IMG/VR virus record: IMGVR_UViG_3300043006_000086
Span: 1 to 64,000 of that record
DNA length: 64,000 nt
Reading direction: 5' to 3' (one strand)
Origin: an uncultured virus (IMG/VR IMGVR_UViG_3300043006_000086)
Taxonomy: Duplodnaviria; Heunggongvirae; Uroviricota; Caudoviricetes
A program made the translations under genes and the position numbers. How positions within the stretch are numbered: position 1 is the first letter of the stretch; every line of letters starts with the position of its first letter. This document shows positions 8,333 to 51,557 of this stretch, piece after piece. The notes under the pieces were generated by a model. It worked only from the letters and a program-made list of their open reading frames with translations. It ran no database searches and was not told the DNA's origin.

Positions 8333-8743
8333 TTATTTTTTCGGTTTTCGCTTCTGAACAAGCGTAAATTCATAGGTTTCATCCCCAATTTGGAAAGAAA
8401 TCTGTCTTTCTGCATTAGTAATTGTAACATTTTCATAGGAAATTTCGGAATTTTCCTGCAAAAACTGTGCAATTTGTGCAATTACACCAGATTTTGTGGT
8501 GTTTTCTTTCTTTTTTTTCTCGAATTTATAGGTTGTAGGCTTCTTTGTGGTAGTTTTTGTACCAGTCTTAGTGTTCGCCTTAACTACCTTTTTCTGCTCT
8601 TCTGTCAAGTCATTTGTGACTTCCTTCATTGACATTTTATCGACCTCAAGGTCATCCATTACAAGGGCAAGTGCTTCATCTCTGGACAGACCTAAAACTT
8701 TCATCTGTTTGGAAACTTCCTTTTCAATCTGTTGTGGTGTCAT
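8333..8743 (-). CDS. Hypothetical protein, partner of wHTH (paralog of 12795..13163)
   Basis: Shared KQMKxLGLxRxEA, TxYKF and ERxxxF motifs. Confidence 0.85.
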   Translation of the reverse strand: MTPQQIEKEVSKQMKVLGLSRDEALALVMDDLEVDKMSMKEVTNDLTEEQKKVVKANTKTGTKTTTKKPTTYKFEKKKKENTTKSGVIAQIAQFLQENSEISYENVTITNAERQISFQIGDETYEFTLVQKRKPKK

Positions 8744-8842: not shown

Positions 8843-9220
8843 TTACTCCTCCTCCTCAATTTCCGCAAGCTTGAAGTAAGCTTTTCTCTTTTCCTCAAAT
8901 CTGATAACTTTACCTTCATCTTTGAGCTGTCTAACAAGGGCTGTTACTTTCTGGTTTGCTAAACCTTCCAGTTCCGGAATTTCCTTCATCATCTGGGAGA
9001 TTGTAGCGGAAGCACCGCCTGCAAGATGAGTAAGGATAACATTTTTCAGACCTTCATTAGCAGTCTGGGTAGCAGTCGGCTTGCGCTCTGCTGAATTTTT
9101 CTTAATGGTCTGCTCAAGAATTTTCTCAAGCTTTGTAACTGCTTCTTCATTACCTGTTGCTCTAACTGCTTCGATTGCGATTTCAAGGGCTACTTTGTTT
9201 GTCATTTTGTTGTTCATCAT
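8843..9220 (-). CDS. Winged-helix DNA-binding-like protein, copy 1 of 3
   Basis: ATISQMMK...ANQKVTALVRQLKDEGKVIRFEEKRKAYF wHTH pattern. Confidence 0.8.
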   Translation of the reverse strand: MMNNKMTNKVALEIAIEAVRATGNEEAVTKLEKILEQTIKKNSAERKPTATQTANEGLKNVILTHLAGGASATISQMMKEIPELEGLANQKVTALVRQLKDEGKVIRFEEKRKAYFKLAEIEEEE

Positions 9221-10629: not shown

Positions 10630-10830
10630 TCAATAAGAATTTTCATAATCCACAACCATTTCTTTATATCTGCCGGAAATCGTATTTCTAAGAATCCGCC
10701 ATACTCTCCAAATGGGATTTCCACCCGTAAAAGCTGAATGATAAACACTCTTGAAATTGTTTAAAGATTTTCTTTCCGTCCACGCTTTAAGTGCATGGTA
10801 TGTACTTGCTTTAATGTTCCATTTTGCCAT
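10630..10830 (-). CDS. Hypothetical protein
   Basis: ORF track; stop overlaps the next -35 box. Confidence 0.7.
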   Translation of the reverse strand: MAKWNIKASTYHALKAWTERKSLNNFKSVYHSAFTGGNPIWRVWRILRNTISGRYKEMVVDYENSY

Positions 10831-10914
10831 TTTTCTTTTCCTCTCTTTCTTTTGATACTGTTATTATACCATAGCGTGGACTAGTTGTCAACCCCCTTTG
10901 GGGGAAACTGAGGA

Positions 10915-11292
10915 TTATTCCTCAGTTTCAGTGTTAAGGTAAAAGTATACCTTTCTCTTTTCCTCAATTCTGATGACTACGCCATCTTCTTTGAGCTGTC
11001 TCACAATAGCGGAGACTTTCTGGTTAGACAGCCCCTCAAGGCTTGCCACACCTTTCATAATCTCTGTTACTGTCGCTCTCTTGCCATCAGACAGGAAAGC
11101 TACAATGTCTGCTTTCAGACCTTCATTAGCAACCTGCGTTGCTGTCGGTTTTCTCTCCGCAGAGTTCTTTTTAACAGTCTGCTCAAGAATTTTCTCAAGC
11201 TTTTCAATAACCTCTGTATTCGGGGTTTCCTGTGCTCCCAGAGTTGCGATTGCGATTTCCAGTGCCTTTTTGTTAGTCATTTTGTTTGTCAT
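10915..11292 (-). CDS. Winged-helix DNA-binding-like protein, copy 2 of 3
   Basis: MTNKMTNKKALEIAI...KKNSAERKPTATQ...SNQKVSAIVRQLK. Confidence 0.8.
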   Translation of the reverse strand: MTNKMTNKKALEIAIATLGAQETPNTEVIEKLEKILEQTVKKNSAERKPTATQVANEGLKADIVAFLSDGKRATVTEIMKGVASLEGLSNQKVSAIVRQLKEDGVVIRIEEKRKVYFYLNTETEE

Positions 11293-11394
11293 AGTATCAA
11301 TTCCTTTCTGGTTTTTAGAACTTTTTCCTTGTTCCTTTTGATGTTTTTATTATATCATGTTTGATAATGGTTGTCAAGAGGTTTTTGAAAAAAC

Positions 11395-11518
11395 TTTTTT
11401 GGGTGCTTTGCTTAGGTAAGTCTTGTTTATTTGATTGAATAGTTGGTTCCTTGCCATTCTTCAACTGGAAACCGCTTACACTCTAAGCAACTGTTTGGTT
11501 TTTCTCAACCTCTGTGAC
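11395..11518 (-). ncRNA. Candidate structured small RNA
   Basis: Consensus promoter 11522-11550; no SD-led ORF; TTGCTTAG-agt-GTAAG pairs with CTTAC-CTAAGCAA; internal GGTTTC/GGAACC stem. Confidence 0.4.
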
Positions 11519-11559
11519 TCCATTATAACACTCTCAGCTAAGATTGTCAAGTGTTTTTT

Positions 11560-11613
11560 TTTATTTCATCTTCTGGATTTTCGAGGAGCGCTCAACTCGT
11601 TTTCCTTCTTGAT
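11560..11613 (-). ncRNA. Candidate small RNA or empty cassette
   Basis: Promoter 11620-11648; nested CATC/GATG, GGA/TCC, CGAG/CTCG pairings; no ORF. Confidence 0.3.
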
Positions 11614-11664
11614 GCTTTTATTATATCATAGCTTGAAGTGTTTGTCAAGAAGTTTTTTTTATTT

Positions 11665-11742
11665 TTTTTTGAAGATGGCTCTTCCGACCGCCAATTACAA
11701 CCTATCCAAGTTCGACTGTTAGGCAACTTCCTTCTTGACTAT
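11665..11742 (-). ncRNA. Candidate small RNA or empty cassette
   Basis: Promoter 11749-11777; GAAG/CTTC closing a junction with GCCTA/TAGGT and TGGC/GCCA stems; no convincing ORF. Confidence 0.3.
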
Positions 11743-11875
11743 GTACTTATTATAGCACATCTGGTTTAGTTTGTCAAGAGGTTTTTTTTATTTTTTTTCT
11801 TTCGGCTTCTGGAAGCCTTTCCCTCCTGACAGTTATTATAATATCACATCTACCCCTAGAATACAATTGGTAAAA

Positions 11876-11905
11876 TGCACAAATTTTGGGAAAAATATTT
11901 GTGCA
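11876..11905. promoter_or_regulatory. TGCACAAA-N14-TTTGTGCA operator-like site
   Basis: Perfect 8-bp inverted repeat with 14-nt spacer. Confidence 0.75.
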
Positions 11906-11924
11906 GTTTTTTCACCGGTTTTGC

Positions 11925-11988
11925 TTGACAAAATGCTGAAGCCTGTGGTATAATCGAAATTCTGGCCGCGTCAGTGGAAAGCGGCCAG
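11925..11988 (+). promoter_or_regulatory. Antisense promoter firing into GC palindrome H2
   Basis: TTGACA-N18-TATAAT (extended TG), then CTGGCCGC-N11-GCGGCCAG (11962-11988). Confidence 0.75.
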
Positions 11989-12013
11989 CCCAATTATCGG
12001 GCTGACCTTAGGC

Positions 12014-12298
12014 TTACAGCTGATAGCCTAAGCCTTTCAGCAGGTCAATTAGCTGTTCACTCTTGGTGTACTGACGATGGTTCGGGATGAGTACAGCGGC
12101 TACCACCTCAGCTTTGTATCCGGTGTCGAACTCCGGATCATCCAGAGCCTCCTGAGGAGTCATGAACTGGATGCGGTTGATGATGGTCACGTTGCCATCG
12201 GCGTCATTCGCATCGAGGAAGTCAGCCGCCTCAAACGGGTCAGCGAACAGTGCGTTGTATTCAGCTCCATTGATTGTCATGTAATATTTGTCTAACAT
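12014..12298 (-). CDS. Acidic hypothetical protein with atypically high GC
   Basis: Start MLDKYY after GAGAGG SD; ~55% GC in the core by hand count. Confidence 0.75.
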   Translation of the reverse strand: MLDKYYMTINGAEYNALFADPFEAADFLDANDADGNVTIINRIQFMTPQEALDDPEFDTGYKAEVVAAVLIPNHRQYTKSEQLIDLLKGLGYQL

Positions 12299-12440
12299 TT
12301 TCATTACCTCTCTTTCATTTGATAAGACTATTATAATGCCTACGTGCCATTTTGTCAACCCATTTCGGGAAATTCGTTTAAAAAATTTTGCACAAAGATT
12401 TCCAAAAGAAAAACTCTGAACTATACAAACTGCACAAAAA

Positions 12441-12500
12441 CCGCCCCGCGCAAGCGTAATCGGGCGGCCCAATTATACTTCACCTTTTGGATTTTGTCAA
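12441..12500 (-). promoter_or_regulatory. GC palindrome H3 with a promoter firing into it
   Basis: CCGCCC...GGGCGG 27-bp unit (12441-12467); minus TTGACA(12500)-N17-TATAAT(12477); TGCACAAA copies at 12431, 12510, 12535, 12561. Confidence 0.75.
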
Positions 12501-12565
12501 TAGGCAAAATGCACAAAATTTTGATTCGTCATTTTGCACAAAAACGTGCTTTGTGCAAATTGCAC

Positions 12566-12603
12566 AAAAAAAATGACCCCTATTTTCTGGGGTCATTTTT
12601 TTT
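12566..12603. terminator. Bidirectional intrinsic terminator
   Basis: A-run ATGACCCC-N8-GGGGTCAT T-run. Confidence 0.8.
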
Positions 12604-12748
12604 AAACCAGCTGTAAGGTAAAGCGGTTTTCATGTTCCAACAGATGCGCCTGTATTGCGCTTTTACCCTTTGCGAGAATCTCACCTGTTTCTAAATCCAA
12701 AAGAATGTTATCTGCATTTTTGTCGATTACTAAACCGAAATGTTTCAT
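12602..12748 (-). CDS. Small hypothetical protein (48 aa, below ORF-track cutoff)
   Basis: AAGGAG SD; MKHFGLVIDKNADNILLDLETGEILAKG... Confidence 0.7.
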   Translation of the reverse strand: MKHFGLVIDKNADNILLDLETGEILAKGKSAIQAHLLEHENRFTLQLV

Positions 12749-12794: not shown

Positions 12795-13163
12795 CTATTT
12801 TCTGGGGGCGCTCAAAACCACTTTGTATTTTGTATCATGGAAGTGAAAAACAAACTCTCTTTCTGGGTTCGCAACTTCATCAACCGCAATTCCCAAACTG
12901 TCAGACAACGCTTGAATCATGGTTGAAACCAGTTCTTCCTTGTCTGGATTCTTTTTCTTTTCCCTCTTGGAAGTATCAAACTTATAAGCTGTCACCTTTC
13001 TTTCAACCTGTCTTGCTTTCTTGGAAGCTTTTTCCTGTTCCTTAGATAAATCAAAAAGCTTTTCGCCTTTATCAATCCGCTCATCATCTTCAATCAGCTG
13101 AATTGCTTCTTCTCTTGTTAAACCGAGCAATTTCATTTGCTTTGCAATCAGTTTTTCATTCAT
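12795..13163 (-). CDS. Hypothetical protein, partner of wHTH (paralog of 8333..8743)
   Basis: KQMKLLGLTREEA, TAYKF, EREFVF motifs. Confidence 0.85.
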   Translation of the reverse strand: MNEKLIAKQMKLLGLTREEAIQLIEDDERIDKGEKLFDLSKEQEKASKKARQVERKVTAYKFDTSKREKKKNPDKEELVSTMIQALSDSLGIAVDEVANPEREFVFHFHDTKYKVVLSAPRK

Positions 13164-13257: not shown

Positions 13258-13641
13258 TTACTCTTCTTCCTCAGAAGAGTTGTAAGCGAAATACGCTTTC
13301 CGCTTTTCCTCGATTCTCACAACCAGATTTTCCTCTTTCAGATTTCTCACAAGAGCGGTTACTTTCTGGTTAGCAAGACCCTCGAGTTCCGGAACTTCTT
13401 TCATCAGTTCCGAAATTGTCTTTTTCTCACCTGTCGCTTTCAGATAAGCGAGAATGTTTTCTTTCAGACCCTCATTTGCGGTCTGAGTTGCTGTTGGCTT
13501 TCTCTCAGCCGAGTTTTTCTTGATTGTCTGTTCAAGAATTTTTTCCAATTTCTCGATAACCTCTGTATTAGGAGTTGCCTGAGCGTTCATAACCTCGATT
13601 GCGATTTCCAGTGCTTTTTTGTTTGTCATTTTGTTTGTCAT
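13258..13641 (-). CDS. Winged-helix DNA-binding-like protein, copy 3 of 3
   Basis: Highly similar to 8843..9220 and 10915..11292. Confidence 0.8.
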   Translation of the reverse strand: MTNKMTNKKALEIAIEVMNAQATPNTEVIEKLEKILEQTIKKNSAERKPTATQTANEGLKENILAYLKATGEKKTISELMKEVPELEGLANQKVTALVRNLKEENLVVRIEEKRKAYFAYNSSEEEE

Positions 13642-14732: not shown

Positions 14733-14826
14733 TGCACAAAGATGATAGAAAATTTTTGTTAATTCTGCCAGGAGTAAAAGTTGCACAAAGTTTTGCCATG
14801 AAGTTTGTGCAGGTTGCCCATTGACA
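14733..14826. promoter_or_regulatory. Two tandem TGCACAAA-N14-TTTGTGCA-type sites
   Basis: 14733-14762 degenerate right half; 14782-14811 perfect; TTGACA 9 bp downstream. Confidence 0.75.
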
Positions 14827-14893
14827 CGCCCCAGGCTAGCAAAGTGCCCAATTTCGGGAGAATTTAAGCGAGAAAATTTGTGCAACTTTTCGC

Positions 14894-18141: not shown

Positions 18142-18293
18142 TTTCAAGTTCCTCTTCCTTTATTTGATGATATCATTATACCACCACCCATTCCAGAAGT
18201 CAAGCAAAAATTGCACAAAAATTAAGTAAAAATTTTGGTTATTTTTTCCTATTGTGCAAAGTGACGAAATTTCGGGATTCCGACCGGAAAATA

Positions 18294-18374
18294 TTTGTGC
18301 AATCTGCCTATTGACAAAATTGCGGGGTGGTGGTATAATTGAAAATTCCGGCCGCAAGGACAGTGCGCGGCCGG
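18294..18374 (+). promoter_or_regulatory. Operator half-site, antisense promoter and GC palindrome H5
   Basis: TTTGTGCA-atctgccta-TTGACA-N17-TATAAT, then CCGGCCGC-N11-GCGGCCGG (18348-18374). Confidence 0.8.
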
Positions 18375-22899: not shown

Positions 22900-22951
22900 G
22901 GCAGATTGCACAAACTTCATCATACATCTTTGTGCAATCTGCCTATTGACA
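22900..22951. promoter_or_regulatory. Perfect 15-bp inverted repeat between divergent -35-like boxes
   Basis: GGCAGATTGCACAAA-N14-TTTGTGCAATCTGCC, then TA-TTGACA. Confidence 0.8.
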
Positions 22952-24845: not shown

Positions 24846-25904
24846 ATAATAAAGTTAGATTATACATTAGAAACTCCTGTAGAACGAAACGAGTTGGTAA
24901 AACAAATTCTGGAAGAAAATCCAGAACCAAATGATAAATATTTAGAAATTCTTGCCGACTACTTAGTTCTTTGTATGGAGAAACAAGAAAAGAAAGAACG
25001 TAAAATTATTACGGAAAATCGAATGACTACAGTTAATAAGAGAGAAACATCATTCGAGGGGCTTGTTTCCCAGCTTGAAAATGGCGAAGATGGTATTTAT
25101 AATTTAATAAATGAAAGTAAAACAACAATTTTTCAACCAAAAGTAAAGATAACCAAAAAAGATTTAGAAGAAATCCAACCCTTAAGACAATTAAAAGAAG
25201 CCATAGATATTTGGGAAGCAAAACTAAAAAGAGCAGAGGGCAAGGATGCTTTTATTATAAAGAAAGCTTTAATTGAGATGCGCAAAGATCAATATATTAT
25301 TAAAAATGCGTATCGTAAACCAATAGTAATGACAAAATTTGTCCGCTCAAAAATGCCGACAAAATTAGAAGAATCATTTTCTTTTGATGCCGATGGATAT
25401 ATTATTCCAGAAGGCGTTTCACTATGTGATCCAAAAGTCTGTTCTGCTATTTTATGTAATTATTCAAGACTAAAAGAAGATTCTTGGGGCCACCATGATA
25501 GTGATTTATGGTATCTCATGGATGATTTTGATTCAATTTCTGGACGAGCCCTTGAAGAATATCCAATGTATAGAAAAATCGTTGAGTGTAAGATTGATGG
25601 ATTACAAAATGTTGAAATCCAAAAGGAACTCAAAGATGAATTTGGCATTACGCATAGTCTAGAATATATTTCATCTCTTTGGCGAAAGAAAATTCCAAAT
25701 TTAATAGCATCTCAAGCTGAAGATGAAACCCTTGATTGGTATTTCTTAACACAAGAAAAAGGCAAATATAAAAGATGCAGTAGATGCGGCGAGATTAAGT
25801 TGGCGCATAATAAATATTTTAGTAAGAATAAAACAAGTAAAGATGGTTTTTATTCTATTTGTAAATGCTGTAGAAATTCAAAAACAAAGGCCAAGAAAGC
25901 TTAA
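24846..25904 (+). CDS. Putative transcription regulator (sigma-region-4-like HTH plus C-terminal Zn finger), probable ATA start
   Basis: YRKIVECKIDGLQNVEIQKEL...ISSLWRKKI; CSRC...CKCC; GGAGGTG SD precedes in-frame ATA. Confidence 0.6.
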   Translation: MIKLDYTLETPVERNELVKQILEENPEPNDKYLEILADYLVLCMEKQEKKERKIITENRMTTVNKRETSFEGLVSQLENGEDGIYNLINESKTTIFQPKVKITKKDLEEIQPLRQLKEAIDIWEAKLKRAEGKDAFIIKKALIEMRKDQYIIKNAYRKPIVMTKFVRSKMPTKLEESFSFDADGYIIPEGVSLCDPKVCSAILCNYSRLKEDSWGHHDSDLWYLMDDFDSISGRALEEYPMYRKIVECKIDGLQNVEIQKELKDEFGITHSLEYISSLWRKKIPNLIASQAEDETLDWYFLTQEKGKYKRCSRCGEIKLAHNKYFSKNKTSKDGFYSICKCCRNSKTKAKKA

Positions 25905-41396: not shown

Positions 41397-44300
41397 ATGG
41401 CTCAACAATTAAATGTCAATTTAGCACTTACCGCAGATACGAGTAATGCTAAAGCTCAGTTACAGTCTTTACAAAAACAATTAACTGATTTAACTAAAAT
41501 AGCCAATAAAAGTACAGATCTTGGTTTCTCAAAAAGTATCAAAGAGTCTACAACTTTAATTGCTCAATTAAAAGCGCAATTAGATAGTGCTACAACATCA
41601 GCTGGAAATTTAGATTTAAGTAAATTTAATGACAGCTTAAAAAGTAGTAATACAACTATTACTCAATATAAAGATGCTTTAACTAATTTGGGACCGGAAG
41701 GCGAACAAGCCTTCGCGCAATTAGCAAACTCTGTAAATAATGCCGAAATTCCGATGAAAAGAGCAGGTAAATTATTAGATGATTTTGCAGTAACATTAAA
41801 GAATACTGCTAAGTGGCAAATTTCATCTGATATTATGCATGGATTTCAAGGTGCATTACAATCTGCTTTTGGATATGCGCAAGATTTAAATGAGTCTTTA
41901 ACAAATATTCAAATTGTTACAGGCCAAACAACTAGCCAAATGGCGCAATTTGCAGAACAAGCAAATAAAAGTGCTCAAGCATTAAGTACAACTACAACAG
42001 CTTACACTGATGCAGCTTTAATTTTCTATCAGCAAGGTTTAAGTGGCTCAGAAGTAACAGATAGAACTGATGTTGTTATTAAGATGGCTCAAGCTACTGG
42101 AGATTCAGCAACTGAAGTTTCTTCTTATATGACAGCTATCTGGAATAACTTTGATGATGGTTCTGAGTCTTTGGAACATTATAGTGATGTTATTACTGCA
42201 TTAGGTGCAGCAACCGCATCAAGTTCATCTGAAATCGCTGAAGGTCTTTCAAAATTCTCCTCAGTAGCAGAAACTGCCGGATTAAGTTATGAATATGCAA
42301 CATCTGCATTAGCTACTGTAGTAGCAAAAACAAGAGAATCAGCAGATACTGTTGGTAATGCTTTTAAAACTATTTTTGCTCGTATTCAAGACTTAGAATT
42401 AGGAGAAACCCTTGATGATGGAACTGATTTAGGAACTTATTCTCAAGCTCTTGAAAAAGTTGGTGTTGATATTAAAGATGCTAGTGGCGAGCTAAAAGAT
42501 ATGGATACCATTCTTGATGAATTAGGTGGAAAATGGAAAACATTATCTAATGATACTCAATTAGCAGTTGCGCAGGCTGTTGCAGGAACAAGACAATATA
42601 CTCAGTTAATGGCATTGATGAATAACTGGGATTATATGCAAGAAAATTTAGCTGTTGCGGAAGATTCAGAAGGAACTCTTGAAGAACAAGCAAGTACTTA
42701 TGCGGATTCTTGGGAAGCTGCTCAAAATAGAGTGACTGCGGCCGCAGAAGCAATTTATGACTCTTTAATTGATGATCAATTTTTTATTACTCTTGATAAC
42801 TTACTTGCAGATTTATTAAAAGGAGTAAATGATTTAATTAAAGGGCTTGGTGGTATTCCTGGAGTTCTTGGAACTATTGGGTCTATTGCAACAAATGTTT
42901 TTAGCAAACAGATTGCTTCTGGACTAAATAATGTTGCTTATGATATTAAAATGTTAACGAAATCTGGTAGAGAAGAAGTTGAAAATTTAAGAAAACAAGC
43001 TTCTACTTCTTTAATTTCATCTATAAGAGATAAAGCAACAAAATCAAGTGGTACGCAAGCTGATATTTATACAGCTGAAGCTGATGCTAAAAAAGCTTTA
43101 TATGAGTCTGCTGAAAAATTAAATGAAGTAGAACAAAAGACTGCTCAGAATTTAGCTGATCAAGTAACCGCTTTAAAAGAAGAGGCTCAAGCAAAAATAG
43201 ATATAGAAAAGGCCGCAACTTCAGATAGAAAACAAAATGAAAAAGCTATTGAAAATGTAGTGACGTCTAATGATACAAGCGGAGAGGGATCATCAATATT
43301 TTCAGCTTTTAAAGATACTACTTCAATTTATACTCAACAACAAAGTTATATAGATTCTTTAAATTCTCAATTACATAGTTTAGGAGAAAATGGTGTAGAA
43401 TCTATTCAAAATATTAAAGATGCCATGGATGGCTTTCAGGATAGACTTGAAACAGCGGGTATAAAGCTTGAAGAAATGCCAAAAGATTTTCAAGAACTCT
43501 ATAAGAAGGTGCAAGATTTTGTAAATAGCAATGGAACTACAGGATCTTTTGATGATATTTTAAAGAATTTTGATGATGTTGCTTCTGGAATAGAGATAGA
43601 AATTGAAACTTTTGTTAATGAATTTAAAGATGAATTTGTTGAATCTTTAGGTCTTTCTGGGGAAGAAGCTGTAAAATGCAAAGATAAAATTGATGCTTTT
43701 GTAAAATCTCTTCAAAATGAAAAAACAGCACATTTAGATGTAGAAGACGCAGTTGTAATACAACAAAATGCAGTTAAAAACTTAAAAGATTATTTAACTC
43801 AAGCTAGAGATTCTTCTTTAAGCTTTGGAGAGACAATGACTTCAGCAGCTAGAGGTATTACTGCATTAACTTCAGAAATGAATGCTATTAAAGGATTAGG
43901 AGATGTTTTTACATCAGATGCTTCGGGATTAGATAAGTTTGTATCTATTGCATCAACAGCAGCTACAACTATTCCAACATTAATTTCTGGCCTTAAAGCT
44001 TTATCTGCTGTTGCGGGAGGTCCAGTTACAGCTATATTAGCAATTGGATCCGCTGTTATTGGAGTTTTTAAAGCAGTTAAAGAAGCTGAAGAAAATAATA
44101 TTTCAAAATTAGAAGAGCAAGCTGAAAAATCTAAAGAGATTGCTGATGAAGCTTATGAGCAAGCAACTCAAGATAAAGAAGTTTTAAAAACTTATCAAGA
44201 CGCTTTAACGGCTTATGATAAAGTATCTGGAGATGGAAAAGAAGCTTTAGTAGAAGCTTCTCAAGCTGTAACTGAAGCTTATGAAATTGAAAATGCTCAA

Positions 44301-47300
44301 TTATTAATCGCGACAGAAAGATATGAAGAATTAGCTGAAGCAGTTAAAAATGCTAGAGCTGAAGAAGCTTCTAAAAATAAAGCTGACATTGGAAATGCTT
44401 TAACTGATGCAGAAGACGCTTTTGAATCAAGAATGCGAGGAAATCCTTTTGATGATAATTATTTTACTACTAATTTACAAGGGAAAGATGTTTATCAAGC
44501 GAATTTTTATGGCATTACAGATTTAGCTGACCCTGATAGTTATAATTATGACACTGGCGCGTATGGTTATGATGAACTTAATAGTGCACTTGATGAAATT
44601 GATGAAAAATATAGAGATTTAATTAAAGTAGATCCATGGGGACGGCTTACTATTGAAACAGCGCAAAGTTCAGATGGATTAATTTCAGCATATGAAGCCG
44701 CTGAAGCTTTACGAGATTCTTTATATAATATGGGAGAAGATGCTCGAGAATCTGATGCATATAAAAATGTAAATGAATATCTTCAAACTATGCAAGAAGA
44801 TTATGAAAATCTTATTGATTTAAAGAAAGAGTATACTGATACAGCGGTTGAAACAGATTTTCAAACAGTATTAGATAATTATACTGGCGATACAGATTTT
44901 AGTAATATCACAAATTTAGATAATTTTATTGATTCAGCAGCTAAATCTATTTCTGAGATGGAAGATGGAAAAGTTAGTATTGATGATGCAAAAGAATCTT
45001 TATTATCTTATATGTCAACTTATTCGGATTATTCTGATTTAGTTCAAGAATCAGAACTTGTCAAAGAAACTGCTGATCAATATAATTTCGATCAAGATAA
45101 ATTAAAAACATGGTATGATCAACAACAAGATGATGCTATTGATAATTTTTCTGATTTATATGTTAAGCTTAATTTTGAAATAGTTAATGATGATACTTTA
45201 AGTGATGATCTTGATGCACAAATTAAAGTTTTACAAGCTCAAGCAGATGCTGACACCATTAAAATTAATTATGAGACGTCAGATACTGCTTTAAGTGACT
45301 TTAAATCTGGCATGACAGCAGATGAGTATAAAAAATTTCAGTCTAGTAGTGGATTAGATTGGGGTCAAACTGTTGAAGGTTTAGAAGATCCAATTATTCA
45401 ATATAGTGAATTCTTAAAGATGTCTGAATCTGAACAAGCTCAATATTTAACAGACATTAATAAAAAATTATATGACAGTTATAATGAATCAGCTTCAACT
45501 GCAGAAAAGGCTGATAGTGAGTATATATCTTATCTTCAAAGTCGTCAAACAGAATTACAAGATATTATTGGTGATTTTAATGAGGCAGATAAAGAAACTG
45601 CGAGACAGAGTTTTAATGGAACAGACGAAGAATTTCAGTCTTTTTGGGATGAAAAAGTTGCAGAAGTAGAAGCTGCGAAAGAAGAACTTGATGCAATAGA
45701 TGAAGAGATAGCTGAATACCAATCAGATTCAGATAGTAGAAGTTCTGATATTGAAATCAATGCAATATTAAAAGATCAAGAATTAAATGAACAACTTAAT
45801 GATTTACAAAGTACTGAGTATAAAATTGGAGTAACTTTAGATGTCGATAATATATCTGCCTTGCAGGAATTATTCGGTAATGATTGGGCAAAAGAGTTAC
45901 AAGATTATGTTCAAATTGGAGTAGATGGATCTTATGAATTAGTTAAAAACGCTGATGAATTTAATGATAAAGTTCAGCAAGCTTATTTAAGCTCAATTGC
46001 TTCCGATATGGAGATGCCAGATGTAAAAAATTATCCAACAAATACTGATGCATATAATCAAGCTATAACTGAATATCAAACTGAATATGCTCAAAATTTA
46101 GCTAAAATAAAAGCTGGTTTAGTTGCAATTAAAGATGATGATACTTTTGATAATCAATTAGAGTATTATAAAGATTTATTAGGTTTATCAGATGAATGGG
46201 CAACTAATGTTAAAGACGCTAGAGACGCACAAGATTCTACAAAAGATACTATTGAAAATTTGAATAGATATTTAGAAGAAGGTAATATTACTTCAAGCGA
46301 GTTTGTTACTAGATTAAATAATCTATTAAATAATGATTCCTCTCTAACAACTGAAGAAAAAATTAAAGCTATTAATGACGCTTTAGATCAAGGCAAATAT
46401 ACAGCAGAGCAATATCAAAGTGAATTAGAAACAATATTAAGCGATTCTGGTTACACCTCTCAAAAGAAAATAGAAGCTATAGATAATTCAAAATTAACTG
46501 ATACTCAAAAAAGATCTGAAAAAGAAAATGTTTATACAAATGCAAGTGATATTTCAGATACAGCTAAAATTTCAGGGTTAGAAGGATTAAAAGTTTCAGA
46601 TTCTACTGAAGAGGATCTTTCTAGAATAAATCAAGAAATCTTAGATATTATAGATTCATCTTCTGAATTATCTGATAGCGAAAAACTAGAAAAATTATTA
46701 GCTACTGATTGGGATGAAGCTACAAAGTCTAGTGAAAAGCATAAAAATACTATGCTAGATATTTTATCTGGAGATACTAATTTAACTTTATCTGAAAAAA
46801 TAGAAAAAATAAATAAAACTATTGCTGGTGGAACAGATGATGCTATTAAATATGGTGGAATTATAGCAGATATTTTATATTCTGACAAAAATTCTACTAC
46901 TCAAGAAAAACTTGAAGCTTTATCAAATGCGCTTGATAAGGTACAAATAACATCAGAAGATGCTAGTAACACTATTTCTTCTATGATTAGTAATAATCAA
47001 ATTAGCTTAGAAGAATTAAAGAATTTTTATAGCGAAAATACGCAGCTTACAGATTATACTGATAAAGTAAAAGAATTAGCTGCTAGTTATGATTATTGTA
47101 CAGAAAGTCTTCAAAAGTATAAAGATGCATTAGAAGAAGGTAATGAAGAAGCAATTTCAGCAACTGAAAAAGCACTTGAATTATCAATAAAAGTTGCAGA
47201 AAATGCAGAAAAATTTAGTATTGATGCAAATGTAATAGAGGCTTTTATAGAAAATCTTTCATCAATGGAAGAATATGCTGATGCATCAGCTGATGAGATT

Positions 47301-50300
47301 GTTAGACTTGGAACTGCTTTTGCAAGAGCTAATGAAGGTTTAAATGATTTATGTGATAATAGTGATACATATCAAGATATATTAGATGAAATAGTGGATA
47401 ATGGTTATGCACAAGCAATTACTCAAGATACTTCAAATACTAAAAAGTTTATAACTTCTTTAGCGAATCTTTTAAATACAAGTGAAAGTGTTGCAAAAAG
47501 TCTCCTAAAAGATCAAAAAAATGCTGATGCATTATCTGGGGCTTTACAAGGCAATACAGATGATATTAAAACTTTAGATAAAGAAGCTAGAAAATTAGCT
47601 GCTATTGAGATTGGTGTTGATGTAGATCAAATCGAAGGCGGAGGTGAAGCTTTAGATTCTTTACTTGATAAAATGGATGAAATTCCAGAAGGTAAAGAAA
47701 TTTTAGTTGAATTAAACGGTGATGAAGAAGCTACATCAGCTTTACAGGGTTTAATCCAAGAGCTTTGGAATTCTAGTGATAGTATTGATGATTTTAATAA
47801 TAATTTAGCTCAATTAGATCTTTTTGGTGATTTGGCTGCTGTTGCAGAAGATAACATGGGTGGAATGATTGATGGAGTTTATCAATCCGCAGAAGAAATG
47901 GCAGCTGCCGGATATGTCTTAATAAGTAACGCAAATGGCATAACTGAGGGATTGTCAAGTGCATTAAGCTTAGAGACAGATGTCGGTTCTATGACAGATA
48001 ATATACAGACAGAAGGAGAAACTGAAACACCGGCTTCTTTTTATCCAGAAGAAAATGGAGAACAAACTATAAATGTACCAGGAGCGGCTTTTTCATCAAA
48101 TGGTGAAAGTTTTGATTTTACTAAAACTGATGGTGCAACCTTAACATATAAGGGTATTAGGTGGACAACTGGAGATACTCAAACCGAATCTATTGAAGAT
48201 CAAACTCCTGTTACTCAAGTATGGGTAAGACCTCGAAAAGGAGGTGGAGCAGGAACTGCGACTCATGGAAATCGTAATGTAAATGGCGGTGGACGTCGAA
48301 GTAGTGGAAGCAGAGGAAGTAGAGGTAGCGGAAGTAGAGGCAGTACTACTAGAAAAAATTCTGCTGAAAAGAAAACAGCTAGTGCAGAGCGCTATCACAA
48401 AGTTGATAAAACTCTTTCAACTTTAGAGAAGCAGTATGATGCTATTTCTAAAGCAAAAGATCGTGCTTTTGGAAAATCTAAATTAAAAAATCTTCAAGAA
48501 GAATTAAAAACTCAACAGGCGATAGTTAAAACCCAAGCAGAGTATTTAAAACAAGCTAATGATTATCTTAAACAAGATAAGAAGAAACTTAATAAGACTG
48601 GAACAACAACGGTAAATGTTGATGGTACTGACTATAAGCTTAATGCAAGTGCCGAAGGCTATTTAGGAATGAAAGTCAAATATGATGATAATAATAACAT
48701 TTCTAATTATGATGAACTTATGGCCGCCAATGATAAAAAGCTTGAAGCTGCTAGAAAAGCATATACTAGTGCTAATTCTGATGATGACGCAGCTAAAGTA
48801 GCTTGGGAGAAAGCTCAAGCGCAGTATGAGGCCTTCCAACAATTCTTGTCTCAATATGAAGAAACGGTTGAAACTGTTCAAGAAAAACAGCAAGATTTAC
48901 AAGATTCTGAAAATGAAGCTTATGATCTTTTAGTTGAAATTACAGATACTAAACTAGAGTTAAAACTAGAAGTTAATGAGGAAGATTTAAAATTATTAGA
49001 TTACTATCTTGGTAAACTTGGTGATGATATTTACGATATTGCAGAAGCAATAACTTTATTAACCCAGGAAGCTGATGTATCATTAAGTAATATTGATGCA
49101 ACAACTCAGCATATGGAAGATACTTATAAGACAGCTCTTGAGCAAGCAGGCGTTAAGAATGTTGATAAAAAAGTTCAGAAGTTAATGAATGGTGAAACAT
49201 TAAGCGATTCAGATATGGAAAAACTTGCATCAACATTGACTGATGACCAAAAGGAATCTTTAAAAGATGATACTGCTAAACTCTTGGAAGAGAATAATAA
49301 CTTACTTGAGATTCAAGCTTCTATTTATGAAGATATTGGAAAAGCATTTGATGCTAATGATGAAAAGTTAGATAAGCAAATCAATAAGCTTCAAAGATTA
49401 AGTAAAGTTACTGATACTTATAAGAACTTAATAGATATTTATGGTCAGAAAAACCTTGGTGTTTCTAATGATACAATGAATAAATTGTATGAGACACAAA
49501 GAAAACAAGCTAAAAATGAGTATGATGCTTTAGTTTCTAAAAAAGAAATGCAAGAATCTGAAATCAAAAAGATGGAAGAAGCTAAACAGCAGCTTATCGA
49601 CATGGGCTATAAAGAAAATAGCACTAATGTTAAAGAACTCCAAGAACAGATTGATGCAGCAAATGAAGCGCTAGAAAGCACAGAAGATAGTATCGAAGAT
49701 GCTAAAACTAGCATTGCAGAACTTACTGTGGCGCAATTTACTCAAGAGATTACTGCGGCAGTCGATGCCTTTAAGGAATCTTGTGGTGGGCTTGCAGGTA
49801 GCATCGATGAATTACAAACAGCTTTTGAAAGAAGTAAAGATATTGCAGATGAATATATTCCAGAATATGAAAAAGTATATGAATTAACTAAATTAACCAG
49901 AAAAATTAATAATAGTATTGATGATACAAGTAATATTAAAGCAAAGAAAGAATTAAATAAATTACTAGAAGAAATCAATGAGAAACAAGAGAGCGGAGTT
50001 CAAATGAGTGAATATGAACTCGAATATCTCCAGAAAAAATATGACTTGAAAGTTGCGGAATTAGCTTTATCAGAGGCTCAAAACGCGAAAAGTCAAGTTC
50101 GTTTAACTCAAGATGCTGAAGGTAATTATGGATATGTTTATACTGCGGATGACTCTCAGGTAGAAGATGCTGAACAAAATTATGAAGATAAATTATATGA
50201 AATGCAACAATTAAATGCAGAATATATAAATACTCTTCAAGAACAAATGATTCAGCTCCAGCAAGAAGAAGCCGACGCTTTAGCTAGTTTGGCAGAGGAA

Positions 50301-51557
50301 TATCAAGACGATGTTGAAGGATTTAATAAAGCGGCTGCTGAATTACAAGCTTATTATGCAGAAAAAAATAGATATACTTCTGAGCAAATGGGCATTGTTA
50401 TTGAAAATAATAAAGAATTATATGAGGATGATGTTGCATCTTATGCGGCTGCTACTGGAAATAAAGCCCTTGCTGATGAAGAATATATTTCTTCTTTTAG
50501 TGACACTCAAATATCTATGTTAACCGGATATAAGAATATGGAAGAGTATCAAGATAATTATACTGAATCTGCGAAAGATATGTATTTAACTGCGGCAAAT
50601 GCTTCAGCTGAGTACGCAAGTAATATAAAAGATGATTTAACTCAGATGGGCTATGATGCAGAGAGATTTGATGAAGAAATGAGTGAAGCTTTAGATAGCG
50701 TTCAAGAAGAGTCTGATTTTCTTAAAGGCAGTATCAGTGAAACTGCTACACAAGCTGAAAATGATTTTGATGGAATTATGGAAAAAGTTACAACTTTTCA
50801 GAGCCAGTATAGTCAAGTTATCAGTGATATTCTCCAAAAGAATGAAGCTTTAGTTGAATCATTTAATAAACTTTTAAAATCTTGGAATGCAGTTGAATCT
50901 AAAGATACTGATGAAGTAAAAACAAATACAAGTGGAACAGGAAACGCGACTGATAATGATAATAGTAGTCAAGGTGAAAACGGAGCAAGTGGAACTGGCA
51001 CTAAACCGACTTGGGATCGAATCATGAGTGCTTATAATAGAATTAATTCTGGTGCTTGGGGAAATGGTGTAAGCCATCGTATCACAATGGGTGCAAAAGA
51101 AGGCTATACAAAAGCTGAAGTAACTGCGGCTCAGACATATATCAACTATGTATATCCCGTTTCTGAGCGTGGTAAAGGATATAGTTCCGCAAAAGCTAAG
51201 AGCTTAATGGGATATGATACTGGTGGATATACTGGAGACTGGGGAGACAATGAAGGAAAACTTGCATTATTGCATAAGAAAGAAATCGTTCTTAATAAAG
51301 AAGATACTGAGAATTTCTTAAATGCAATAGATATGGTTCGTGAAATTTCTAATATGATTGATTTGAATGCGGTGTCCGCAAGTGGCGGATTAGGACAGAT
51401 ATTAGCTGCTTCTGTTGGAAATTCAAGTAATCAAACATTAGAGCAAGAAGTTCATATTACTGCTGAATTCCCGAACGCAACTGATAAGAATGAAATTTTA
51501 GAAGCTTTTGACAATGTTATAAATCTTGCATCTCAATATGCAAATCGTAGTAAATAA
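41397..51557 (+). CDS. Tail tape measure protein (3386 aa)
   Basis: TP901-type core (TRESADTVGNAFKTIFARI, AGTRQ...L.ALM.NW); long helical repeats; C-terminal YDTGGYTG..G.LALLH.KE.VLN. Confidence 0.92.
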   Translation: MAQQLNVNLALTADTSNAKAQLQSLQKQLTDLTKIANKSTDLGFSKSIKESTTLIAQLKAQLDSATTSAGNLDLSKFNDSLKSSNTTITQYKDALTNLGPEGEQAFAQLANSVNNAEIPMKRAGKLLDDFAVTLKNTAKWQISSDIMHGFQGALQSAFGYAQDLNESLTNIQIVTGQTTSQMAQFAEQANKSAQALSTTTTAYTDAALIFYQQGLSGSEVTDRTDVVIKMAQATGDSATEVSSYMTAIWNNFDDGSESLEHYSDVITALGAATASSSSEIAEGLSKFSSVAETAGLSYEYATSALATVVAKTRESADTVGNAFKTIFARIQDLELGETLDDGTDLGTYSQALEKVGVDIKDASGELKDMDTILDELGGKWKTLSNDTQLAVAQAVAGTRQYTQLMALMNNWDYMQENLAVAEDSEGTLEEQASTYADSWEAAQNRVTAAAEAIYDSLIDDQFFITLDNLLADLLKGVNDLIKGLGGIPGVLGTIGSIATNVFSKQIASGLNNVAYDIKMLTKSGREEVENLRKQASTSLISSIRDKATKSSGTQADIYTAEADAKKALYESAEKLNEVEQKTAQNLADQVTALKEEAQAKIDIEKAATSDRKQNEKAIENVVTSNDTSGEGSSIFSAFKDTTSIYTQQQSYIDSLNSQLHSLGENGVESIQNIKDAMDGFQDRLETAGIKLEEMPKDFQELYKKVQDFVNSNGTTGSFDDILKNFDDVASGIEIEIETFVNEFKDEFVESLGLSGEEAVKCKDKIDAFVKSLQNEKTAHLDVEDAVVIQQNAVKNLKDYLTQARDSSLSFGETMTSAARGITALTSEMNAIKGLGDVFTSDASGLDKFVSIASTAATTIPTLISGLKALSAVAGGPVTAILAIGSAVIGVFKAVKEAEENNISKLEEQAEKSKEIADEAYEQATQDKEVLKTYQDALTAYDKVSGDGKEALVEASQAVTEAYEIENAQLLIATERYEELAEAVKNARAEEASKNKADIGNALTDAEDAFESRMRGNPFDDNYFTTNLQGKDVYQANFYGITDLADPDSYNYDTGAYGYDELNSALDEIDEKYRDLIKVDPWGRLTIETAQSSDGLISAYEAAEALRDSLYNMGEDARESDAYKNVNEYLQTMQEDYENLIDLKKEYTDTAVETDFQTVLDNYTGDTDFSNITNLDNFIDSAAKSISEMEDGKVSIDDAKESLLSYMSTYSDYSDLVQESELVKETADQYNFDQDKLKTWYDQQQDDAIDNFSDLYVKLNFEIVNDDTLSDDLDAQIKVLQAQADADTIKINYETSDTALSDFKSGMTADEYKKFQSSSGLDWGQTVEGLEDPIIQYSEFLKMSESEQAQYLTDINKKLYDSYNESASTAEKADSEYISYLQSRQTELQDIIGDFNEADKETARQSFNGTDEEFQSFWDEKVAEVEAAKEELDAIDEEIAEYQSDSDSRSSDIEINAILKDQELNEQLNDLQSTEYKIGVTLDVDNISALQELFGNDWAKELQDYVQIGVDGSYELVKNADEFNDKVQQAYLSSIASDMEMPDVKNYPTNTDAYNQAITEYQTEYAQNLAKIKAGLVAIKDDDTFDNQLEYYKDLLGLSDEWATNVKDARDAQDSTKDTIENLNRYLEEGNITSSEFVTRLNNLLNNDSSLTTEEKIKAINDALDQGKYTAEQYQSELETILSDSGYTSQKKIEAIDNSKLTDTQKRSEKENVYTNASDISDTAKISGLEGLKVSDSTEEDLSRINQEILDIIDSSSELSDSEKLEKLLATDWDEATKSSEKHKNTMLDILSGDTNLTLSEKIEKINKTIAGGTDDAIKYGGIIADILYSDKNSTTQEKLEALSNALDKVQITSEDASNTISSMISNNQISLEELKNFYSENTQLTDYTDKVKELAASYDYCTESLQKYKDALEEGNEEAISATEKALELSIKVAENAEKFSIDANVIEAFIENLSSMEEYADASADEIVRLGTAFARANEGLNDLCDNSDTYQDILDEIVDNGYAQAITQDTSNTKKFITSLANLLNTSESVAKSLLKDQKNADALSGALQGNTDDIKTLDKEARKLAAIEIGVDVDQIEGGGEALDSLLDKMDEIPEGKEILVELNGDEEATSALQGLIQELWNSSDSIDDFNNNLAQLDLFGDLAAVAEDNMGGMIDGVYQSAEEMAAAGYVLISNANGITEGLSSALSLETDVGSMTDNIQTEGETETPASFYPEENGEQTINVPGAAFSSNGESFDFTKTDGATLTYKGIRWTTGDTQTESIEDQTPVTQVWVRPRKGGGAGTATHGNRNVNGGGRRSSGSRGSRGSGSRGSTTRKNSAEKKTASAERYHKVDKTLSTLEKQYDAISKAKDRAFGKSKLKNLQEELKTQQAIVKTQAEYLKQANDYLKQDKKKLNKTGTTTVNVDGTDYKLNASAEGYLGMKVKYDDNNNISNYDELMAANDKKLEAARKAYTSANSDDDAAKVAWEKAQAQYEAFQQFLSQYEETVETVQEKQQDLQDSENEAYDLLVEITDTKLELKLEVNEEDLKLLDYYLGKLGDDIYDIAEAITLLTQEADVSLSNIDATTQHMEDTYKTALEQAGVKNVDKKVQKLMNGETLSDSDMEKLASTLTDDQKESLKDDTAKLLEENNNLLEIQASIYEDIGKAFDANDEKLDKQINKLQRLSKVTDTYKNLIDIYGQKNLGVSNDTMNKLYETQRKQAKNEYDALVSKKEMQESEIKKMEEAKQQLIDMGYKENSTNVKELQEQIDAANEALESTEDSIEDAKTSIAELTVAQFTQEITAAVDAFKESCGGLAGSIDELQTAFERSKDIADEYIPEYEKVYELTKLTRKINNSIDDTSNIKAKKELNKLLEEINEKQESGVQMSEYELEYLQKKYDLKVAELALSEAQNAKSQVRLTQDAEGNYGYVYTADDSQVEDAEQNYEDKLYEMQQLNAEYINTLQEQMIQLQQEEADALASLAEEYQDDVEGFNKAAAELQAYYAEKNRYTSEQMGIVIENNKELYEDDVASYAAATGNKALADEEYISSFSDTQISMLTGYKNMEEYQDNYTESAKDMYLTAANASAEYASNIKDDLTQMGYDAERFDEEMSEALDSVQEESDFLKGSISETATQAENDFDGIMEKVTTFQSQYSQVISDILQKNEALVESFNKLLKSWNAVESKDTDEVKTNTSGTGNATDNDNSSQGENGASGTGTKPTWDRIMSAYNRINSGAWGNGVSHRITMGAKEGYTKAEVTAAQTYINYVYPVSERGKGYSSAKAKSLMGYDTGGYTGDWGDNEGKLALLHKKEIVLNKEDTENFLNAIDMVREISNMIDLNAVSASGGLGQILAASVGNSSNQTLEQEVHITAEFPNATDKNEILEAFDNVINLASQYANRSK

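Follow-up and report, generated by a model that had tools for sequence, protein, structure and literature searches.

A promoter array ahead of a winged helix-turn-helix gene

The window analyzed here, by which we mean the whole stretch of 64,000 nucleotides, comprises bases 1 to 64,000 of a 74.5-kb virus record (IMG/VR IMGVR_UViG_3300043006_000086) from an uncultured member of the Caudoviricetes. Between positions 11349 and 11866, five promoters lie head to tail on its minus strand, four of them perfect matches to TTGACA-N17-TATAAT and one weaker, ahead of a gene for a winged helix-turn-helix (wHTH) protein. One of the four stretches that separate them contains a conserved motif, here called Type B, whose closing helix varies in a compensatory manner, and we propose that the stretches between the promoters may be RNA modules rather than empty spacers.

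The weaker promoter, P1 (-35 box TTGTAT at 11866-11861, -10 box TATTAT at 11843-11838), adjoins an operator-like site and can be aligned in the related loci L007 to L009. P2 (-35 box at 11777-11772, -10 box at 11754-11749), P3 (11648-11643 and 11625-11620), P4 (11550-11545 and 11527-11522), and the gene-proximal P5 (11377-11372 and 11354-11349) match the consensus at 12 of 12 positions. All five have a 17-nt spacer and a TG extension of the -10 box, and an A-tract with 17 to 19 A in the 25 nt upstream of the -35 box precedes P2, P3, and P4. Both the tandem promoters and the A-tracts had been noted at these places in a preliminary description made from the letters alone, as had the lack of genes between them. 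Measured from the end of one -10 box to the next -35 box, intervals 1 to 4 are 60, 100, 69, and 144 nt long. Within the 518 nt that hold the four full promoters and the weaker one, there is no open reading frame (ORF) of at least 30 amino acids led by a Shine-Dalgarno (SD) sequence; the only frames are one of 9 codons starting with TTG (11595-11566), one of 27 amino acids starting with ATG behind a poor SD sequence (11374-11457), and one of 44 amino acids starting with TTG that runs through P3. None of the three is conserved, and no homolog of the 27-amino-acid frame in interval 4 was found in four relatives. The minus strand has no terminator-like site within 11293-11866, and the interval A-tracts would give runs of A, not of U, in RNA. 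Searching Rfam, as the preliminary description had advised, matched no family: Rfam 15 gave 0 matches at gathering score over the whole window, and permissive thresholds at 10800-12100 returned only noise (E values of 2 to 8.6, 13 to 16 bits).

The array belongs to an early region on the minus strand from 7 to 25 kb, in which 42 promoters are at most one mismatch away from TTGACA-N17-TATAAT. This region holds 104 promoter-like sites (26 of them perfect and on the minus strand), compared with 51.6 ± 7.0 in shuffled sequence, which excludes a chance origin of the promoters. At 31 of the 42 near-consensus promoters on the minus strand, an SD-led ORF of at least 39 amino acids starts 26 to 56 nt downstream, so promoters without an ORF are the exception. 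Against windows of equal size in the early region, the array is not enriched in GGA (11 versus 9.3 ± 3.0); the AGGA motifs to which attention had been drawn earlier are indeed mildly enriched (7 versus 3.5 ± 2.0), and AAGGA occurs 6 times versus 1.3 ± 1.2. SD-like polypurines lie within about 20 nt of the predicted transcript starts (AGGAGGG in unit 1, AAGAAGGAAG in unit 2, and AAGAAGGAAA in unit 3), where "unit" denotes an interval behind its own promoter. Such a polypurine close to the 5′ terminus, with no start codon that could be used, is the arrangement of the 5′ mRNA stabilizers of Bacillota (SP82 polypurine or STAB-SD type).

The gene served by the stack, wHTH paralog 2, occupies 10915..11348 on the minus strand, including a 56-nt leader, and encodes 125 amino acids. 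The protein has weak matches to MarR, TrmB, and BlaI types, and its AlphaFold model (predicted local distance difference test score, 82.4) has two N-terminal helices and a winged helix in the C-terminal half, for which Foldseek returned MarR, MecI, and PadR-like regulators at a best E value of 1.1e-3. It is one of three paralogs (8843-9220, 10915-11292, and 13258-13641) of 125 to 127 amino acids that are 65 to 71% identical. The third copy is preceded by two stacked promoters (13823 and 13723) with a purine-rich interval that is fully unstructured (minimum free energy of 0).

Conserved and covarying structure between the promoters

Type B (11660..11738, minus strand) is a three-way junction in interval 2. 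Positions 11730-11727 pair with 11674-11671 (helix P1), 11724-11720 with 11704-11700 around a 15-nt loop (helix P2), and 11693-11690 with 11679-11676 around a 10-nt loop (helix P3), and an outer helix joins GUCAAGAAG (11739-11731) to CUUCUUGAC (11652-11644), which overlaps the -35 box of promoter P3. RNAalifold predicts the same junction from the homologs. The hairpins proposed for the intervals in the preliminary description all exist; its GCCTA/TAGGT and TGGC/GCCA pairings correspond to helices of Type B, to which the covarying closing helix is now added.

Identity of interval 2 to loci L008 and L009 is uninformative alone, because the flanks are themselves 91 to 93% identical, and more distant homologs carry the comparison. 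A pattern scan found locus L127, with a nearly unaltered interval 2 core between diverged flanks and a gene for a small membrane protein, not a wHTH protein, downstream. Five further loci came from scanning the metagenome collection for a 22-mer. The resulting eight distinct sequences align without gaps, and the 53-nt core varies at only 6 columns, although the wHTH proteins encoded beside it in L160 and L164 are only 27% and 42% identical to that of the window. A core that stays nearly unchanged while its neighbors diverge this far must do something specific, and by this comparison of sequences it is under strong purifying selection. The closing helix, in contrast to the core, takes many forms (GAAG/CUUC, UGAG/CUCA, GAGCGG/CCGCUC, AAGCGG/CCGCUU, AAGAGG/CCUCUU, and AGAUGG/CCAUCU), with 89.8% of alignment cells paired, 5 pairs and 13 cells changed on both sides, and 3 pairs that are never broken in spite of 2 to 4 pair types. 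Its covariation score of 0.286 compares with 0.082 in shuffles, none of 500 of which reach it, and with 0.03 to 0.11 in slid controls. Two G-U pairs (G15-U39 in 6 of 8 sequences and G23-U30 in all 8) fit the promoter-sense strand only. An invariant GGA occupies each of the two hairpin loops, 22 nt apart.

The contexts of Type B are consistent in some respects and variable in others. In all eight, the motif starts 8 to 19 nt past a -10 box in the sense orientation, and none has a terminator. A consensus promoter follows in six; in the other two, L160 and L164, Type B lies 33 to 42 nt before the wHTH start with no promoter between, so that it forms the wHTH 5′ untranslated region. The genes downstream include those for wHTH proteins, the small membrane protein, and others. 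The covariance model scores 97.6 bits and finds one copy per genome in the lineage of the window, and no copy in three relatives of about 195 kb. The 22-mer had 0 matches in a set with one genome per prokaryote species, and Type A (a second family, described below) and Type B matched no Rfam family at E ≤ 1 in the loci of five relatives, where only two tRNAs were found. We therefore regard Type B as a candidate new RNA family, since no described family in Rfam matched it.

Several other readings of the motif were discarded. The sense frame has no start codon left in L008 or L009 and is interrupted by a stop in L009, and for a 15-codon antisense frame across Type B, all 5 substitutions would be nonsynonymous. 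The best antisense match of the Type B loops (12131-12146, -17.6 kcal/mol) is neither kept in L008 nor present in the other contexts, and we attribute it to chance. The loose gapped pattern used for scanning matched at least 119 stretches and was filtered for two or more nearby promoters; among the matches listed, three are real (L127, L137, and L146). The likeness of L020:7793-7910 to Type B, which came from this loose pattern and was missed by the covariance model, is unreliable. A scan with a second subpattern gave no new member.

The remaining units differ in how well they fold. Taken alone, the four intervals have z-scores of -0.78, -0.05, -0.89, and -2.48, and only interval 4 beats its shuffles; with the next -35 box included, the scores are -4.62 for unit 1, -2.53 for unit 2, -0.96 for unit 3, and -2.59 for unit 4. 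Unit 1 (11772..11831, minus strand) is closed by a 10-bp helix between UGUCAGGAGG (11831-11822) and CCUCUUGACA (11781-11772, the -35 box of P2 plus 4 nt), which encloses an inner GGCUUC/GAAGCC hairpin (11817-11804) and leaves the A-tract looped out. This fold has -19.6 kcal/mol, a stability reached by 0 of 200 shuffles, and 9 of the 10 closing pairs are retained in L008 and L009. In unit 4 (11378..11521, minus strand), the 144-nt interval is closed by UCA.AGAGGU (11517-11508) with ACCUCUUGA (11382-11374), which overlaps the -35 box of P5, around a long inner stem of UUGCUUAG..UAAG with CUUACCUAAGCAA; 3 of 200 shuffles are as stable. Unit 3 (11551..11619, minus strand) has a standard leader, an SD-like AAGAAGGAA, the 9-codon TTG frame, and an imperfect hairpin with helices CAUC/GAUG, GGA/UCC, and CGAG/CUCG.

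In units 1, 2, and 4, the 5′ end thus pairs with the -35 region of the next promoter. The same helix between leader and next promoter recurs in relatives with compensatory variants (AAG/CUU, GGG/CCC, and AGG/CCU). Across 71 distinct ORF-less units, pairing with the unit's own next promoter averages 6.38 bp, versus 5.58 bp in cross combinations, and 0 of 2,000 permutations are as high; since the sequences are related by descent, these are permutation counts and not probabilities.

At the position that matches interval 2, the 100-nt interval of relatives carries a different family, Type A, of which the window has no copy. It combines a hairpin, whose CGCAUAA loop is invariant and whose stem covaries throughout, with a long-range helix, in which the first transcript nucleotides UGUCAAGAGG pair with CCUCUUGACA, again a -35 box of the next promoter plus 4 nt. 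Among 15 distinct copies in viral contigs, 194 of 194 cells are paired and 9 of 13 pairs are compensatory in an alignment that was fitted to the model and thereby favors the structure. In L180 and L185, no promoter supplies the 3′ strand of the closing helix, and pairing is retained nevertheless (CAUCAAAAGG/CCUUUUGAUG in L180 and 13 bp in L185), and in L180, the only such case among the 15 copies, a canonical intrinsic terminator directly follows the helix. These two loci argue that the closing helix is a feature of the RNA itself and that a module can stand alone. Further copies lie, for example, at L012:5545-5649 and L164:977-1080; in L164, tRNA genes at 358-430 and 1551-1640 flank an array of Type A, Type B, and wHTH.

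Turnover of units and genomic surroundings

The near-identical relative of the window phage, a complete genome of 175.6 kb with direct terminal repeats, has the same array and places the window phage at about 175 kb; more distant relatives have about 195 kb. In L008 and L009, whose wHTH protein is 87% identical to that of the window by tblastn (84% for L008 in an alignment), 271 bp are absent, comprising interval 3, P4, interval 4, and the -35 box of P5. The indel ends inside P3 and P5, leaving a hybrid promoter in which the -35 half of P3 is joined to the -10 box and leader of P5, and this indicates that units are gained or lost by promoter-promoter recombination. The gene for wHTH copy 2 is 84% identical in nucleotides to that of L008 and L009, more diverged than its flanks at 91 to 93%. 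In five related genomes, intervals 3 and 4 gave matches to promoters and A-tracts only, and a 20-mer of interval 4 occurs in the viral collection only in the identical relative. Searched by blastn-short against 173 loci, the unique cores of intervals 1, 3, and 4 returned only the window's own record and that relative.

Among 21 related loci, which were collected through the wHTH protein, are therefore centered on wHTH genes, and in some cases overlap on contigs, 19 have at least one wHTH gene with two or more stacked promoters, and the number of stacked promoters per wHTH gene ranges from 1 to 5. The intervals of the more distant relatives are unrelated in sequence. Some of them contain very short frames: ORF-less intervals in L010 to L021 (e.g., L010:3852-3919) have a strong SD sequence followed by ATG and seven codons (MRSPPKRK), with two synonymous differences between copies, and those in L022 and L024 have a strong SD sequence and the tiny frame ATG-ACT-TAG.

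Upstream of the array, an inverted pair at 11876..11905, TGCACAAA (11905-11898) and TTTGTGCA (11883-11876) 14 bp apart, sits between P1, which lies 9 nt downstream, and a divergent plus-strand promoter, and is conserved in L008 and L009. The 8-mer TTTGTGCA occurs 19 times in the window, versus 3.4 ± 1.8 expected, and clusters at early promoter pairs; from this distribution, it probably serves an early regulator, possibly a wHTH paralog, as operator. Its sites (11876-11905, 12389-12568, 14733-14884, 18212-18301, and 22907-22936) are usually inverted pairs beside divergent or convergent early promoters.

Elsewhere in the window, genes for terminase, portal, and tail proteins lie in the late half. 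In the phage collection, the portal protein comes closest to those of an uncultured human-gut phage (40.5% identity) and of Enterococcus phages (28%), and all named hosts of such records are Bacillota, which by this protein are infected by the closest cultured relatives. A blastn search of 10800-12100 against the phage collection gave no match, and a scan of the whole window for tRNA and tmRNA genes found none. Two giant ORFs lie on the late plus strand (41397-51557, 3,386 amino acids, and 51667-57300, 1,877 amino acids). The first plus-strand gene at the divergence point of early and late regions (24894-25904) matches a phage sigma-factor family (phrog_5767, E value of 1.5e-49) and has an HNH-like C terminus. 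A second paralogous pair of small early proteins (8333-8743 and 12795-13163, 136 and 122 amino acids) adjoins wHTH paralogs, one each. Consensus promoters that fire straight into a GC-rich hairpin lie at 12500(-), 10331(-), 14988(-)/14894(+), 11925(+), and 18311(+). Two of these have U-runs after the hairpin and would yield RNAs of about 35 nt, one pair converges on a shared hairpin, and the promoter at 11925(+) is antisense to the 3′ end of the gene at 12014-12250; this promoter-into-hairpin module is also present in relatives.

Readings of the array and its relation to known systems

The array is present in six metatranscriptome runs, four of which (X1 to X4, from four studies) were examined as assembled contigs. 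The contigs cover 11295-11817 in X1, 11308-11821 in X2, 10970-11817 in X3, where a single piece reaches into the wHTH gene, and 11400-11747 in X4, and together they bridge every junction between promoter and interval. The contigs of three runs, each from a different study, end without loose ends at 11817, 11821, and 11817, 5 to 14 nt downstream of the predicted P1 start; these end points hint weakly at firing of P1 and at a transcript of it that extends through the array. Positions 11863-12093 and 12325-12632 have no contig cover in any of the four runs; we use neither these gaps nor the depths of single contigs as evidence.

Together with the absence of a terminator, the bridging contigs suggest promoter-led RNA modules within a read-through promoter stack. 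The reading that we consider most likely, with a probability of about 0.55, is that these modules act as RNA, in the form of closed domains at the 5′ ends of transcripts, with Type B binding some factor. Five early promoters of the sigma-A/sigma-70 type, each with an extended -10 box and P2 to P4 also with an A-rich UP-like tract, would all read without termination into wHTH paralog 2, and the array would also multiply transcription of that gene. In units 1, 2, and 4, a (U)GUCA(A/G)GAGG-like sequence a few nucleotides from the start would pair with the next -35 box and the 3 to 4 nt upstream of it, so that a stem would bound the RNA of the unit and leave the A-tract in a loop. Such a closed 5′-terminal domain may resist decay from the 5′ end, and the invariant loops of Type B may bind a protein or other factor. 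Type B itself would serve in two arrangements, either as a wHTH 5′ untranslated region or as a promoter-led unit of its own before other genes. Units would come and go by recombination between near-identical promoters, and units 3 and 4 may be a recent, dispensable addition.

Several points weigh against this reading. The contigs reveal neither strand, ends, abundance, nor whether a single transcript is present, and carry-over of DNA into the libraries is possible. The Type B family is small, its eight distinct sequences are related by descent, and only its closing helix covaries; helices P2 and P3 are invariant and give no evidence for or against pairing. Because Type B is missing from transcripts that start at P3, P4, or P5, it cannot exert full cis control over the wHTH gene. 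The smaller and stricter anchored pairing test, in which 154 of 5,000 permutations were as high, rests on 5 combinations. From the sequences involved, the helix with the -35 box could in part be a by-product of an SD-like GAGG leader and a CCTC-TTGACA promoter context that are independently favored. Seven intervals of relatives folded alone are mostly shuffle-like (z-scores of 0.51, -1.87, 0.65, -0.80, 0.31, 0.76, and 0.32), and the fold of unit 3 is at the level of chance (35 of 200 shuffles as stable). The inner hairpin of unit 1 is not kept in L008 and L009, and units 1, 3, and 4 have no independent homologs. The earlier proposal that all four intervals are RNA cargo is accordingly supported for interval 2, but intervals 3 and 4 are confined to the lineage and interval 1 does not keep its hairpin even among close relatives.

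A rather doubtful alternative is that the modules are separate small RNAs acting in trans, which would start by initiation and obtain their 3′ end by trimming to the closing helix, and which might serve as a decoy for a host protein or defense factor or as an RNA that modifies polymerase. Each unit has its own promoter, beginning 3 to 12 nt past the predicted start of a consensus promoter, and the new promoter that follows Type B in six of eight contexts makes the downstream genes independent of the module. Type B is conserved whatever gene lies downstream and has GGA in both hairpin loops, the Type A copy in L180 has its own terminator, and stable processed RNAs typically have paired 5′ and 3′ ends, as these modules would. 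However, a terminator or other defined 3′ end was found in none of the four window units and in none of the eight Type B contexts, the RNA-library contigs bridge all junctions, and Type B is simply the wHTH 5′ untranslated region in two of eight cases. Furthermore, conserved covarying structure characterizes unit 2 only, the best antisense match of the helix P2 loop is not conserved, and no target or partner was found. The preliminary description was therefore apt in seeing RNA cargo in a promoter-cassette format, as the Type A and Type B families bear out, but four separate small RNAs are at odds with the missing terminators and bridging contigs. Only tentatively would we extend the idea to the group of gut phages to which this one belongs, such that at least two RNA families (Type B and Type A) are carried in recombination-prone promoter cassettes in the manner of the small early proteins, are closed by the next -35 box, and exert their effect in trans at an early stage of infection. 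If true, these would be an undescribed class of phage host-takeover RNAs, which might, for example, titrate a host RNA-binding or defense protein or modify polymerase.

It is unlikely that the array is purely a stack of promoters that raises wHTH expression, with vestigial cassettes in between that have decayed to a leader, an SD sequence, and a few codons. Units 2 and 3 do open with the standard leader and an SD-like AAGAAGGAA, followed in unit 3 by the 9-codon frame, and relatives carry SD sequences with frames of 2 or 8 codons at the same place. Moreover, L008 and L009 do without units 3 and 4, wHTH genes have anywhere from 1 to 5 stacked promoters, and most intervals, when folded alone, are no more stable than shuffles. 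This explanation may be the true one for units 3 and 4. What it leaves unexplained is the near-invariant Type B core beside proteins of 27 to 42% identity, with its compensatory closing helix, as well as the covariation of Type A and the strong folds of units 1, 2, and 4 with the next -35 box. The suggestion that the promoters are stacked to boost the wHTH gene thus gains from their recurrence at wHTH genes in 19 of 21 loci, but the intervals are not mere spacers. An element acting at the DNA level, whose inverted repeats and core would be protein-binding sites or DNA hairpins (for wHTH proteins, replication, or recombination), is highly improbable: the closing helices do include -35 boxes, genes for DNA-binding wHTH proteins are always nearby, and operator-like TTTGTGCA pairs flank P1, but the Type B G-U pairs would be A-C mismatches on the opposite strand and have no bearing on duplex DNA, sites in duplex DNA are not expected to covary between arms about 55 to 100 nt apart, and every module immediately follows a promoter and has the sense orientation.

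If the modules do act as 5′-terminal RNA domains, early regions of this kind, usually read as lists of small host-takeover proteins, would include RNA among the cargo behind consensus promoters, and Type B would provide a candidate family of about 65 nt with a testable fold. The design would also be compact, with one -35 box serving both its own promoter and, as the 3′ strand, the closing helix of the RNA before it.

The major early promoters A1, A2, and A3 of coliphage T7 are likewise tandem, spaced by about 100 nt of noncoding sequence near the early end of the genome. Both arrays consist of strong co-oriented promoters for the host polymerase with noncoding stretches between them; those of T7 all read into the first early genes, as those of the present stack probably do. 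The array described here differs in having five promoters, in serving a single wHTH paralog, in belonging to a phage whose nearest cultured relatives infect Bacillota, in the conserved covarying RNA motif between its promoters, and in a number of units that changes among close relatives.

In HK022, putL and putR are leader RNAs of two stem-loops that act in cis by modifying polymerase. Type B resembles them as a conserved folded RNA just past an early promoter that lacks a terminator of its own and does not depend on the identity of the downstream gene. Unlike them, it is a three-way junction, and it shares no sequence likeness with put. Sponge RNAs of the CsrB/RsmZ type combine many GGA loops with a terminator. 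The invariant GGA in each Type B hairpin loop recalls these, and the preliminary description had suggested CsrA-type decoys; however, only these two loop GGAs were found in the array, GGA does not exceed the background of the early region, and most invariant positions of Type B are not GGA.

Among phages of Bacillota, those of the SPO1/SP82 type and Kayvirus share with this phage dozens of consensus sigma-A promoters with extended -10 boxes for early genes. Hue et al. in 1995 and Agaisse and Lereclus in 1996 reportedly described 5′ stabilizers of SP82 and cryIIIA mRNAs in Bacillota. The polypurine leaders of the window resemble these stabilizers, as far as the available excerpts describe them, and may have a stabilizing role as well. 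According to portions of the published accounts, SP82 early RNA contains RNase III sites (PMC4838370), SP82 mRNA is stabilized by an SD-like element (PMC7509114), and vB_SauM-515A1 has 58 early promoters and two strongly transcribed noncoding regions of 525 to 570 nt (PMC7698491). The phage studied here is unrelated to them in sequence, with no blastn match in the phage collection and a portal protein at most 40.5% identical to a record there, and Type B has no counterpart in those portions.

The closest parallel in the turnover of units is offered by the promoter-early stem-loop (PeSL) cassettes of T4-type phages, in which, by the sections consulted, a promoter and a terminator stem-loop isolate each cassette (PMC2839356 and PMC4122927). 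As in PeSL cassettes so described, the early region is plastic, its small cassettes lie between strong, near-identical sigma-70-like promoters, and indels end in the repeated promoters, here with the 271-bp indel. Unlike in those sections, no terminator separates the units within 11293-11866, the stem is formed by the 5′ end of a unit and the next -35 box, and some cassettes appear to carry RNA instead of an ORF. The array would thus be a case outside T4-like phages in which repeated promoters serve as recombination points for adding and removing units.

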